From positions 72,643 to 136,642 of IMG/VR virus record IMGVR_UViG_3300025876_000005: DNA of 64,000 nucleotides, one strand, 5' to 3'. The translations under genes were made by a program, and so were the position numbers. The notes beneath the pieces are model-generated. The model worked only from the letters and a program-made list of their open reading frames with translations. It was not told where the DNA came from and ran no database searches. Positions 61,636 through 64,000 of this stretch are shown in pieces (positions within the stretch are counted from its first letter, which is position 1; each line of letters starts with the position of its first letter). The stretch comes from a virus.

Positions 61636-62150
61636 TGAAGAGATTTGTAACTTCAAATATGCAGCTGGGTCGTCCAGCTGCTATTAAAACTTATAAGAGA
61701 CCTTTCGAGAATGTAGATGAGATGACCGACGCTCTAATCAGAGAGTGGAATAATGTCGTCTCTCCAGGTGATCTTGTCTATCACTTAGGTAACTTTGCCT
61801 GGGATCCAAAGACAGCACAAGAGGCCTTAGATCGACTTAACGGTAACATTTGGTTACTGCCAGCAGAATACGATGATGCTGTAATGATCTTGGCTAGAAA
61901 AGGTCTACTAAGAGATGGTGTTAAGGTGATTAACCGAATTATGCCGCTTGAAATGATGAAGGCTAATCTAAGTTACTGGCCAATGGAAGCCTGGCCCGGC
62001 AAACAGAAAGGTTACTACTCAATCATAGGTCACCCGCAGAAGCAATTCAAGAGTGACCCAAAGAAGAAGCGCATTAACGTTTCTACTGATCTCTGGGGTT
62101 TTAAGCCACAGGATCTAGAGAAGACTTTACAGATCTTTTACGACATCTAA
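61635..62150 (+). CDS. Calcineurin-like phosphoesterase homolog with substituted metal ligands (start re-assigned from 61599)
   Basis: Scaffold RPF.NVDEM...LI.EWN..V..GD.VYHLG is retained, but motifs read SNMQLG, GNF, AEYD and IGH. Confidence 0.7.
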   Translation: MKRFVTSNMQLGRPAAIKTYKRPFENVDEMTDALIREWNNVVSPGDLVYHLGNFAWDPKTAQEALDRLNGNIWLLPAEYDDAVMILARKGLLRDGVKVINRIMPLEMMKANLSYWPMEAWPGKQKGYYSIIGHPQKQFKSDPKKKRINVSTDLWGFKPQDLEKTLQIFYDI

Positions 62151-62185
62151 ACTTTTTGCAACTTTTTTGCAAAAAAGTTTTCTAG

Positions 62186-62217
62186 TGTCAATCTTTTTTA
62201 TTATATTAGTACTATAA
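62186..62217 (+). promoter_or_regulatory. Host-type early promoter of the ECF sigma gene
   Basis: TGTCAA-N10-TATATTAG-T-ACTATA. Confidence 0.65.
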
Positions 62218-62239
62218 TTATCACACAAAGAAAAAATAT

Positions 62240-62857
62240 ATGTCAAAAACATCCGATTTAAGCTACAGAGAATTAGCAGAGAACTTTTATGCTTCACGCA
62301 GTGAAAAAGACTACAATGTACTTTACAAGAAGGTAAAGCCAGGACTTAAGTCTTATATCTTTAACATCATTAAAGACTCAGAAGCAACTGGCGATGTCTT
62401 AGCTAATACTCTGACTAAGCTTTGGACTAAGATAGATCAGTACAAACCAGAGTATCAAGTAACTACATGGCTTTACAAGATAGCATTCAACGAATGTCTA
62501 AGTCATATTCGTAAGCGTAATCGTAAGTACAGTCTAGATGCAATGCGAGATTATGGGATCGAAGTAACTGAAGGCAACCATACAACAAACATGGCCGACA
62601 ATTTACTCTTAGACTCAGAAGAGCGCATGACTGAAGCAGACTTCTACGAAGAAGATGAGTATTTACAAAATCGTTACGAAAGTGCAATTGAGTGTATTAA
62701 CAGCCTTAAGCCAATGTACCGTGAGATTATGCAAGATCGTCTATTTCACAATATGAAGTACGAAGACATTGCAGAGAAATACAACGTATCTCTACAGACT
62801 GTAAAGAATAGAGTACGTCGCGGAAAAGTTCTAATCCAAAGAGCGATGGGCGAATAA
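62240..62857 (+). CDS. ECF-type sigma-70 family sigma factor
   Basis: Region 2 LTKLWTKIDQY...TTWLYKIAFN; region 4 MKYEDIAEKYNVSLQTVKNRVRR. Confidence 0.88.
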   Translation: MSKTSDLSYRELAENFYASRSEKDYNVLYKKVKPGLKSYIFNIIKDSEATGDVLANTLTKLWTKIDQYKPEYQVTTWLYKIAFNECLSHIRKRNRKYSLDAMRDYGIEVTEGNHTTNMADNLLLDSEERMTEADFYEEDEYLQNRYESAIECINSLKPMYREIMQDRLFHNMKYEDIAEKYNVSLQTVKNRVRRGKVLIQRAMGE

Positions 62858-62898
62858 AGTTGAAACTTTTAAAAAGTTAACGATATATACTATCACAA

Positions 62899-62973
62899 AT
62901 GAAATTATTGAATAACATAGAGCTGAATTTAAGAAGACTAGAACCTAGTCTTGGAAGCCCTCTTATTCGATAA
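62899..62973 (+). CDS. Putative attenuator leader peptide MKLLNNIELNLRRLEPSLGSPLIR (24 aa)
   Basis: ATG just after AAAC-N17-TATAT / GATATATA (62863-62889); overlaps the 5' arm of the antiterminator. Confidence 0.55.
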   Translation: MKLLNNIELNLRRLEPSLGSPLIR

Positions 62974-63030
62974 ACTCAGATAAGACACCAACTAACCAGA
63001 GGGCTTCAAGAAATTGAGGCCCTTTTTTTT
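62934..63030 (+). promoter_or_regulatory. Attenuator-like mutually exclusive antiterminator/terminator
   Basis: Hairpin 62934-62952; GAAGCCCTCT (62954-63) pairs with AGAGGGCTTC (62998-63007); terminator GGGCTTCAA-GAAA-TTGAGGCCC-T8 (63001-63030). Confidence 0.65.
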
Positions 63031-63057
63031 GCAAAAAAAGTCAAAAAAAGTTTTTAG

Positions 63058-63088
63058 TGTCAAACTTATTTGTTATATTTGCACTGTA
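63058..63088 (+). promoter_or_regulatory. Host-type early promoter of the tRNA cluster
   Basis: TGTCAA-N10-TATATTTG-C-ACTGTA. Confidence 0.7.
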
Positions 63089-63111
63089 ACAAAAACGTTC
63101 TTTTACATAAT

Positions 63112-63183
63112 GGTCCGTTCGTCTAGGGGTCAGGACATCACCCTTTCACGGTGAAGACACGGGTTCGATTCCCGTACGGACTA
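63112..63183 (+). tRNA. tRNA-Glu(TTC)
   Basis: Full cloverleaf; anticodon arm TCACC-CTTTCAC-GGTGA; no encoded CCA. Confidence 0.92.
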
Positions 63184-63189
63184 CAATAT

Positions 63190-63263
63190 TCCTCCATAGC
63201 TCAGTTGGTTAGAGCGGCTGACTGTTAATCAGTAGGTCCCTGGTTCGAGTCCAGGTGGGGGAG
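63190..63263 (+). tRNA. tRNA-Asn(GTT)
   Basis: Full cloverleaf; GCTGA-CTGTTAA-TCAGT. Confidence 0.93.
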
Positions 63264-63269
63264 CAAGTT

Positions 63270-63510
63270 GATTGTCAATGACGCTTATTGGCAGACTGTT
63301 GGACGCGGGTTCGAATCCCGCCACCTCCACAAGTTCTTTTACATATTACCAAAATATGGGGGTGACCGGCTTTTGACAATGGTTGATAGCGATAGGAAGA
63401 GACGATTGGCGTACGCAAACGACAACTTTGCATTAGCGGCATAAGTGCTGCTGATCTATTAAAGTCAAGGACTTGATAGATCACGTCAGCCTAGAACGAA
63501 ATCTAGGCAC
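63270..63510 (+). ncRNA. ssrA: Circularly permuted (two-piece) tmRNA: acceptor piece ~63270-63329, intervening segment, coding piece 63358-~63510, tag (A)ANDNFALAA
   Basis: T-arm plus CACCTCC-A lies upstream of GGGGGTG; they pair with a G3.U70 wobble. Tag frame 63415-63444. Confidence 0.85.
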
Positions 63511-63513
63511 TTT

Positions 63514-63599
63514 GGTCGAGTGGTGGAATAGGTAGACACGTCAGACTTAAAATCTGATGGGCAGTAATGCTCGTGCGGGTTCGATTCCCGCCTCGACTA
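63514..63599 (+). tRNA. tRNA-Leu(TAA)
   Basis: Class II cloverleaf; TCAGA-CTTAAAA-TCTGA; long variable arm. Confidence 0.92.
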
Positions 63600-63647
63600 C
63601 AAAGAAACAAACAGACTCTTTATTCATATAAAGACTGTTAAATGAAT

Positions 63648-63721
63648 GGTCGCGTAGCTCAGCTGGATAGAGCATCTGCCTTCTAAGCAGACGGTCACAG
63701 GTTCGAATCCTGTCGCGATCA
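63648..63721 (+). tRNA. tRNA-Arg(TCT)
   Basis: Full cloverleaf; TCTGC-CTTCTAA-GCAGA. Confidence 0.93.
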
Positions 63722-63725
63722 CTAA

Positions 63726-63857
63726 ATGATTATGAAAATGTTAAACGAAAACCAAGGTAAGAGATTAAGTCAGGTCAAAGACTCTGAGAATCTAGCAATG
63801 TTATCAGTTATACTGGTCTTAATAGGAATAGTGGTAACGGCATTTGTCATTAACTAG
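63726..63857 (+). CDS. Small membrane protein (43 aa) within the tRNA cluster
   Basis: MIMKMLNENQGKRLSQVKDSENLAMLSVILVLIGIVVTAFVIN; C-terminal hydrophobic helix. Confidence 0.5.
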   Translation: MIMKMLNENQGKRLSQVKDSENLAMLSVILVLIGIVVTAFVIN

Positions 63858-63863
63858 AATTGA

Positions 63864-63937
63864 GGGCTCTTAGCTCAGTTGGTTAGAGCAACTGACTCAT
63901 AATCAGTAGGTCGCAGGTTCGAGCCCTGCAGGGCCCA
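63864..63937 (+). tRNA. tRNA with CAT anticodon, most likely tRNA-Ile2 (lysidine, reads ATA)
   Basis: Cloverleaf; GGGCTCT acceptor with C4-G69 and CTCATAA loop resemble bacterial Ile2 more than Met tRNAs. Confidence 0.8.
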
Positions 63938-63943
63938 CAATAT

Positions 63944-64000
63944 GCTCAAGTGGTGGAATTGGTAGACACGCTGGTCTTAGGAACCAGTGCCGCAAGGCTT
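63944..64000 (+). tRNA. tRNA-Leu(TAG), truncated by the window end
   Basis: D-arm GGTAGACAC; CTGGT-CTTAGGA-ACCAG; start of the variable arm. Confidence 0.85.

Follow-up and report, generated by a model that had tools for sequence, protein, structure and literature searches.

A putative leader-peptide attenuator ahead of phage tRNA and tmRNA genes and its possible role as a sensor of decoding

Setting and anatomy of the locus

The window, a stretch of 64,000 nucleotides from IMG/VR record IMGVR_UViG_3300025876_000005, belongs to a phage genome of 176,489 bp (38.6% G+C), which occurs in marine and estuarine metagenomes of at least 10 studies, six metatranscriptome runs among them. A search for the closest cultured phage found none; in it the relatives of the sigma factor encoded in the window, at no more than 32% identity, belonged to Lak and crAss-like Bacteroidota phages. 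A Shine-Dalgarno signal is absent before 160 long open reading frames (ORFs) of this phage, where the upstream sequence is A-rich (positions −20 to −1: G ~12%, A ~50%).

The gene for this sigma factor, of the ECF type (Pfam regions 2 and 4), has its 3′ end at 62857, upstream of the structure that we call unit 1. Unit 1 is on the + strand, as are the class 1 promoter element, the tRNA genes and the tmRNA gene that follow it. It opens with the promoter-like site that the original prediction had placed upstream of a leader; read in the sequence, this site spans 62860–62889, with TTGAAAC (62860–62866) as the −35-like element, a 15-nt spacer and GATATATA (62882–62889). The proposed 24-codon leader ORF (62899–62973, ATG to TAA, MKLLNNIELNLRRLEPSLGSPLIR) was confirmed by direct reading and in the ORF list, and its ATG stands 9 nt past GATATATA. 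Codons 3–15 of leader 1 (62905–62943), all of which are read by the six tRNAs of the following block (sub-cluster 1), are termed the sensing window. The predicted hairpin at 62934–62952 was recovered in the minimum free energy (MFE) fold as an inner hairpin of 8 bp (62934–62941 with 62945–62952) within codons 12–18.

The antiterminator 5′ arm, or region 2 (GAAGCCCTCT, 62954–62963), is located within the ORF and ends 7 nt short of the stop codon. Its 10 nt are the exact reverse complement of AGAGGGCTTC (62998–63007), which upholds the claimed 10-bp antiterminator; AGAGGGCTTC is held by region 3, the 5′ arm of the unit 1 terminator. The stop codon lies in the inter-arm loop (62964–62997), as does the 3′ side of a further pairing, termed 1:2. 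The intrinsic terminator, identified by folding and by a terminator scan, occupies 62998–63030, with a stem at 62998–63025 (12 pairs, loop of 4) and a T8 run to 63030. A terminator with T8 had been correctly anticipated, but its stem begins at 62998 and not at 63001. The segment 62890–63035 has an MFE of −39.3 kcal/mol (z = −4.5), which 0 of 200 shuffles equalled. Further, the region 15–100 nt upstream of each of the 36 predicted + strand terminators of the genome was scanned for a complement to the terminator. Strong complements were detected only in unit 1 (dG −18.9, perfect match of 10 nt) and in a second unit described below (−16.6, 7 nt), while at the remaining 34 terminators no complement exceeded −10.0 kcal/mol in strength or 5 nt in perfect match.

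The motif GATATATA is found in 32 copies on the + strand vs one on the − strand. Its 22 intergenic copies sit 4–43 nt ahead of the ATG of a long ORF, and three genes begin 4 nt past the motif. The leader 1 ATG without a ribosome-binding site is normal here, because phage genes lack a Shine-Dalgarno sequence and frequently begin 4–30 nt past GATATATA, several of them at 4 nt. A near-leaderless start of leader 1 is plausible for this phage, its translation being inferred. The GAAAC...GATATATA pair is also present ahead of unit 2 and of units in the loci L038, L059 and L013 discussed below, and leaders 1 and 2 both open with ATG AAA.

A promoter element of a different, early type (class 1: AGTGTCAA, 8 nt, TTATATTT[AG]CACTGTAA) lies at 63040–63089, between terminator 1 and tRNA-Glu. 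The element is highly conserved and contains a box similar to the Bacteroidota −7 motif TAnnTTTG. Because of this box and the genes without Shine-Dalgarno sequences, a Bacteroidota-like host is suggested, which remains an inference. Class 1 elements precede genes at no fewer than eight places, often directly after a terminator (terminator–promoter cassette), and their sites include window positions 63040–63089, 62186, 58417, 38506 and 6296. The separate early promoter that had been proposed at 63058, below terminator 1, is real. It follows that the attenuator is not the sole route to the tRNAs of block 1, which have an attenuator-independent, unregulated route at least at some infection stage. 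The unit 1 attenuator would be relevant to transcription from the GAAAC/GATATATA promoter, presumably later in infection. No promoter lies between the terminator and the following tRNA in unit 2, L038 and L059.

Block 1 itself comprises tRNA-Glu(UUC) and tRNA-Asn(GUU) (63112–63264), a permuted, two-piece tmRNA with the tag ANDNFALAA (63270–63444; Rfam RF04321, 67.6 bits, gathering score 47), tRNA-Leu(UAA), tRNA-Arg(UCU) and a CAU tRNA, probably Ile2 (63514–63938), and tRNA-Leu(UAG), which is truncated by the window end (63944–64000). These six tRNAs form the set that had been claimed, but the Ile2 identity of the CAT tRNA is probable and not proven. Its phage look-alikes in BLAST are labelled Met, Ile or Lys, and its best Escherichia coli matches are Ile or Lys, not Met. 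The permuted tmRNA is compact and is located inside the tRNA block that unit 1 would gate. A motif, GTTCTTT[TG]ACATA(T/A)TGG, is conserved just ahead of tRNA genes and also of the tmRNA 5′ piece (window 63096–63108 and 63333–63345; genome 137162 and 139070; also L007, L009, L010 and L013). It is not present at class 1 promoters ahead of protein genes and may serve as a signal for processing. A 43-codon ORF (63726–63857) with a hydrophobic C-terminal helix is located between tRNA-Arg and the CAT tRNA; it has neither terminator nor antiterminator and is no leader of the attenuator type.

Leader codons and the two tRNA blocks

All 13 of leader 1 codons 3–15 had been predicted to be read by the six tRNAs downstream, and this is what we obtained (13/13; P = 1.2e-8 at a codon share of 24.6%). 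Codons of sub-cluster 1 make up 23–25% of the codons in long ORFs, and no other run of them in any of the six frames of the 176-kb genome is as long as the 13 codons in leader 1, the runners-up having 11 and 10. The original prediction had cautioned that the match might be less specific than it looks. This caution is justified for the complete cluster, which continues past the window end and comprises 25 tRNAs; because these cover every amino acid but Trp, any ORF would match them, and a codon match to the whole phage tRNA set is meaningless and was rejected as evidence. It does not hold for the six tRNAs, which are a natural block because unit 2 stands directly after the sixth of them, Leu-UAG.

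Unit 2 (genome 136685–136906; L046 1387–1607) is located beyond the window end, 1.2 kb downstream of unit 1, and repeats the same build of promoter, leader, antiterminator and terminator, dividing the tRNA cluster in two. Its leader has 28 codons (MKRSHTYMVDFGWSQAIKPCELRGPNIV), and the ORF begins 30 nt past its GATATATA. The arm GAGGCCC, which is complementary to the terminator 5′ arm, ends 10 nt ahead of the stop codon, and the terminator adjoins tRNA-Ser(GCU). Leader 2 holds all 20 amino acids and contains the sole 27-codon windows with all 20 in the six frames of the genome, as well as the sole 19-codon window with 19 different amino acids. Across 128 related loci nothing besides leader 2 exceeds 17, and no random 19-codon string reached 19 amino acids in 2 million draws. 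The all-20 property was noticed before it was tested.

The two leaders partition the codons between the two blocks. None of the first 18 codons after the leader 2 ATG belongs to sub-cluster 1 (0/18, P = 6e-3), while its last eight codons use sub-cluster 1 amino acids too. Taken together, 30 of the 31 sensing-window codons of both leaders fall to their own tRNA sub-cluster, a score attained under random 6-of-24 tRNA partitions in 2 of 200,000 trials, and the real block has the top score among contiguous blocks. Without the Ile2 call for the CAT tRNA the result is hardly changed (29/31). A Fisher test on the leader codons (13/1 vs 0/18) gave P = 4e-8. Reading of CUU by Leu-UAG and of GUC by Val-UAC was assumed as wobble.

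Several elements of uncertain nature have been observed in the cluster beyond the window. Just after tRNA-Ser, a Trp-like, tRNA-like element with a CUCCAAA anticodon loop (genome 137007–137083; L046 ~1708–1784), identical in L001, was not called by ARAGORN or Rfam; the TGG codon of leader 2 may be served by it. A further tRNA-like element, with a CAU anticodon and a long variable arm (genome 137403–137480; L046 ~2104–2181), is likewise uncalled by ARAGORN and Rfam. ARAGORN reported a 94-nt tRNA-Gly(UCC) with a long extra arm (genome 137990–138083; L046 2691–2784), which is unmatched by the Rfam tRNA model and whose identity is doubtful. Two similar hairpin elements of ~55 nt, which separate tRNA-Ala from a GAAAC/TATATAA promoter without any ORF in between (genome 139013–139233; L046 3714–3934), may be small RNAs.

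Folding, transcripts, conservation and recurrence

Folding of unit 1 produced the two mutually exclusive conformations that the original prediction had proposed, the 10-bp antiterminator and the terminator. They are of nearly equal energy (antiterminator duplex −17.4 kcal/mol vs terminator hairpin −17.3 kcal/mol), and the antiterminator is obtained on a cut transcript only. On the complete transcript at equilibrium the terminator forms at every ribosome position, so that a thermodynamic switch was rejected. Because the terminator wins at equilibrium and the two helices are of about equal strength, the switch must be kinetic. It was simulated on a transcript cut just before the terminator 3′ arm, with a ribosome footprint from −15 nt of the A-site codon to +14 from its first base. 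Under these settings, the predicted probability of the antiterminator in unit 1 was ~0.9 with the A-site at codons 1–14 and ~0 at codons 15–25, and the matched codons (3–15) stop where the antiterminator-free window stops. Similar simulations left the antiterminator free (P ~0.9) at codons 1–19 of unit 2, 1–15 of L038 and 1–19 of L059, and masked it from codons 20, 16 and 20, respectively. The antiterminator (2:3 duplex) also forms on the cut transcript without a ribosome. In the full-length MFE fold, leader 1 codons 3–6 pair with 62962–62972 (the 1:2 pairing), whereas on the cut transcript the 2:3 duplex wins. Because the modelled antiterminator forms without a ribosome, the default state may be read-through, unlike in trp, and the 1:2 pairing may not enforce termination.

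Metatranscriptome contigs cover both leaders. One of them (X17) comprises the sigma gene 3′ end and leader 1 and stops at the end of the T-run, which is weak evidence, and a second crosses terminator 1 into tRNA-Glu. These contigs are compatible with partial termination; they are no proof of it and give no starts, ends or levels.

Unit 1 is found in three haplotypes, represented by the window genome with L002, L049 and L050, by L051, and by L001 with L107. An 11-nt insertion precedes the leader 1 ATG in L001 and L051, with two different sequences, and the ORF frame is kept. Codons 3–15 show one change across the haplotypes, which is synonymous (CTG>CTT). The inner hairpin is maintained in L001 and L051 via an A>G change (U-A to U-G), the one haplotype change in region 3 leaves both alternative helices paired (A-U to G-U), and the antiterminator 5′ arm is identical in all haplotypes. 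Past the stop codon, the inter-arm loop carries eight changes in L051 while the arms are unchanged. The leader 1 ORF, both arms and the terminator are thus maintained in the three haplotypes, and the 5′ UTR and inter-arm loop vary. In unit 2, a stretch of 170 nt contains 3 changes, of which one is synonymous, vs ~15 in the 50 nt upstream. The evolutionary depth of unit 1 is shallow, because the three haplotypes all share at least 95% sigma identity and relatives with no more than 67% sigma identity have no leader after the sigma gene, where a promoter is followed directly by tRNAs.

Independent units were sought in 128 related loci with a pipeline that is blind to amino-acid content. Loci qualified if a terminator lay within 400 nt ahead of a tRNA and if an ATG ORF of 12–60 codons ended no more than 90 nt ahead of that terminator; the duplex of the ORF 3′ part with the terminator 5′ arm was then scored. 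The output contained leaders 1 and 2 and two independent units in two unrelated phages, L038 and L059. The L038 leader has 25 codons with 18 different residues (P = 7e-4) and the L059 leader 31 codons with 19 (P = 1e-3), a diversity within the top 0.1% of length-matched windows, and each has a perfect 9-nt arm. Both units have a GAAAC/GATATATA promoter and a terminator adjoining tRNA-Cys, with arms of different sequence, and neither of the two peptides is related to the other or to the window leader. In the units the complementary segment is always 7–18 nt ahead of the stop codon and always paired to the terminator 5′ arm. Four further pipeline candidates with weak duplexes had an ordinary leader composition. 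In the record of L038 the leader stands ahead of ten tRNAs, which read 10 of the 14 codons in its window (P = 0.016); every one of these ten tRNA species is represented in the leader.

In L013 (4636–4905; 61% sigma identity), the sigma gene is followed by GAAAC/GATATATA, a 45-codon ORF, a terminator, a class 1 element and tRNA-Gln. The ORF contains 19 of the 20 amino acids in its 45 codons (P = 0.036, modest). As a further unit L013 was left ambiguous, its antiterminator (GGUUCUUUU with AAAAGGACC) being weak and only possible. Leader peptides are too short as queries in a peptide-based locus search; degenerate DNA patterns matched only two already known contigs in IMG/VR, and four DNA metagenome runs contained no new haplotype of leader 1 or 2.

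Interpretation and known systems

Unit 1 is, in our judgement, probably a ribosome-mediated leader-peptide attenuator that senses the decoding of codons served by the tRNAs it gates, with leader translation, kinetics and the direction of control inferred. The anatomy, statistics, conservation and recurrence were established here, and experimental evidence is lacking. The reading as a sensor of tRNA supply, advanced in the original prediction, gains support from the 30/31 partition, the switch at codon 14/15, the haplotype conservation and the independent units, while translation of the leader and regulated termination are still unshown. The attenuator would gate read-through from a middle/late-type phage promoter into the tRNA block and the tmRNA gene. 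RNA polymerase would start at GAAAC/GATATATA and a ribosome would load on the near-leaderless ATG. A fast ribosome, being at codons 15–24 as region 3 emerges, would cover 62954–62963, upon which the terminator would form and transcription would halt at T8. A ribosome delayed within codons 3–14, which read Leu UUA/UUG/CUG/CUA, Asn, Ile AUA, Glu and Arg AGA, would leave the arm free to pair with 62998–63007; no terminator would then form, and the tRNA and tmRNA genes would be transcribed. The net effect would be negative feedback on tRNA supply. Equivalent control over the other tRNAs would fall to unit 2, whose leader samples all 20 amino acids.

A more far-reaching proposal, which we offer as a tentative possibility only, is that each tRNA block has its own codon-barcoded meter of decoding speed, with leader 2 as a pan-tRNA sensor and the whole serving also as a sensor-coupled counter-defence and homeostat. 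Loss of any single tRNA species, for example via a host anticodon nuclease or infection-induced tRNA decay, might then hold up the ribosome within the sensing window and induce transcription of replacement tRNAs and tmRNA; the link to host defence is unshown.

The same hardware could also sense general translation capacity or amino-acid charging and not the abundance of particular tRNAs, its inputs being ribosome availability, starvation or a translation-targeting defence and its varied codons allowing a response to any slowdown. Such a sensor would account for the sampling of nearly all amino acids by leader 2, L038 and L059, for the sub-cluster 1 amino acids in the last eight codons of leader 2 and for the tmRNA gene among the gated genes, and with an antiterminator that forms without a ribosome any loss of translation would lead to read-through. 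For a general sensor, however, the partition is unnecessary. Leader 1 is not diverse (10/24) and is confined to exactly the six tRNAs that follow, the leader 2 window avoids sub-cluster 1 codons, and codons of the tRNA set downstream of L038 are enriched in the L038 window; we consider a general sensor unlikely.

Alternatively, unit 1 may be a small independent gene with a ~135-nt transcript, acting in trans as a small RNA or through its 24-residue peptide; the class 1 promoter alone would then drive the tRNAs, and the internal complement would have its role in keeping the RNA stable or in its processing. Unit 1 does have its own promoter and a strong terminator, the class 1 promoter does come after that terminator, and the entire unit is conserved at the nucleotide level. 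A released attenuator RNA acting in trans has been reported for rnTrpL (PMC6614838), and the attenuator RNA of unit 1 could likewise act in trans. A trans-acting gene is nevertheless improbable in view of the other units: the terminators of unit 2, L038 and L059 adjoin the next tRNA with no promoter between, the peptides are unrelated while codon content and geometry are common, and the complement always involves the terminator 5′ arm and a segment 7–18 nt before the stop codon. It remains to be considered that the structure is the ordinary sigma-gene terminator of a terminator–promoter cassette, with ORF, complement and codon match arising by chance. Cassettes of this kind are repeated in the genome, one RNA contig extends from the sigma gene as far as T8, and a 24-codon open frame alone is not rare in AT-rich DNA. 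Chance is disfavoured to the point of being barely tenable by the strong upstream complement (exact over 10 nt in unit 1), which is unique to the tRNA-cluster terminators, by a codon run that is the genome-wide maximum, by the partition test (2/200,000), by the recurrence of the build in unit 2 and two other phages, and by the leader 1 frame kept across an indel.

Why phages carry tRNA genes and how the expression of these genes is timed are open questions. Phage tRNAs are usually explained as compensating for codon usage, as replacing host tRNAs that have been degraded, or as a means to escape anticodon nucleases. If the attenuator reading is true, a leader that reads the codons of the tRNAs following it would gauge decoding supply directly and in a self-correcting manner, and classical attenuation would be extended from enzyme genes to tRNA genes. 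With all 20 amino acids, leader 2 would lend itself to sensing translation elongation in general, and the division of two tRNA blocks of one genome between two leaders would constitute a built-in specificity control. A full-text literature search found no published description of leader-peptide control of tRNA genes. Neither the Rfam leader families (His_leader, Trp_leader, Leu_leader and Thr_leader) nor the T-box matched 62000–64000 at E up to 1 or the tRNA cluster as a whole at E up to 0.1.

Leader-peptide attenuators of enterobacterial amino-acid operons include trpL, hisL, leuL, thrL, pheL and ilvL (see also PMC3082878, PMC6614838). As in attenuators of the trpL/hisL type, unit 1 has a short ORF near the transcript 5′ end with the regulatory codons early or in the middle, and a region 2 near the stop codon that pairs with the terminator 5′ arm and is masked by a ribosome at the ORF end. 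The terminator is at least as stable as the antiterminator, hence the kinetic control, and an intrinsic terminator (12-bp stem and T8) separates the leader ORF from the regulated genes. The leader codons also correspond to what the operon supplies, here tRNAs rather than an amino acid. Unlike the trpL/hisL type, the gated genes are phage tRNA and tmRNA genes and not biosynthetic enzymes, and the leader carries a mixed codon 'checklist' of the downstream tRNAs, or of all 20 amino acids, in place of a single-amino-acid run. In addition, the phage leader is near-leaderless without a Shine-Dalgarno sequence, and the antiterminator of the phage unit is predicted to form without translation.

Other systems share single aspects of this design. 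The pheM leader attenuator controls pheST, which encodes phenylalanyl-tRNA synthetase. There too a component of the decoding apparatus is controlled by the reading speed of its own codons, but pheM gates a synthetase gene, uses Phe codons only and is cellular, not viral. T-box riboswitches similarly sense tRNA state and choose between antiterminator and terminator before genes of the translation apparatus, whereas they bind uncharged tRNA via a specifier loop and the T-box motif, without translation. T-boxes are not known to be typical of Bacteroidota, which the hosts here seem to resemble. Multivalent attenuators are known in the ilvGMEDA leader (Ile, Leu and Val) and the thr leader (Thr and Ile), in which, as in the phage, one leader reads several kinds of codon. 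Those leaders are limited to two or three amino acids of one pathway, while phage leader 1 reads six tRNAs and leader 2 up to 20 amino acids. Unit 1 would work like the trpL/hisL attenuators but stands outside the described families.
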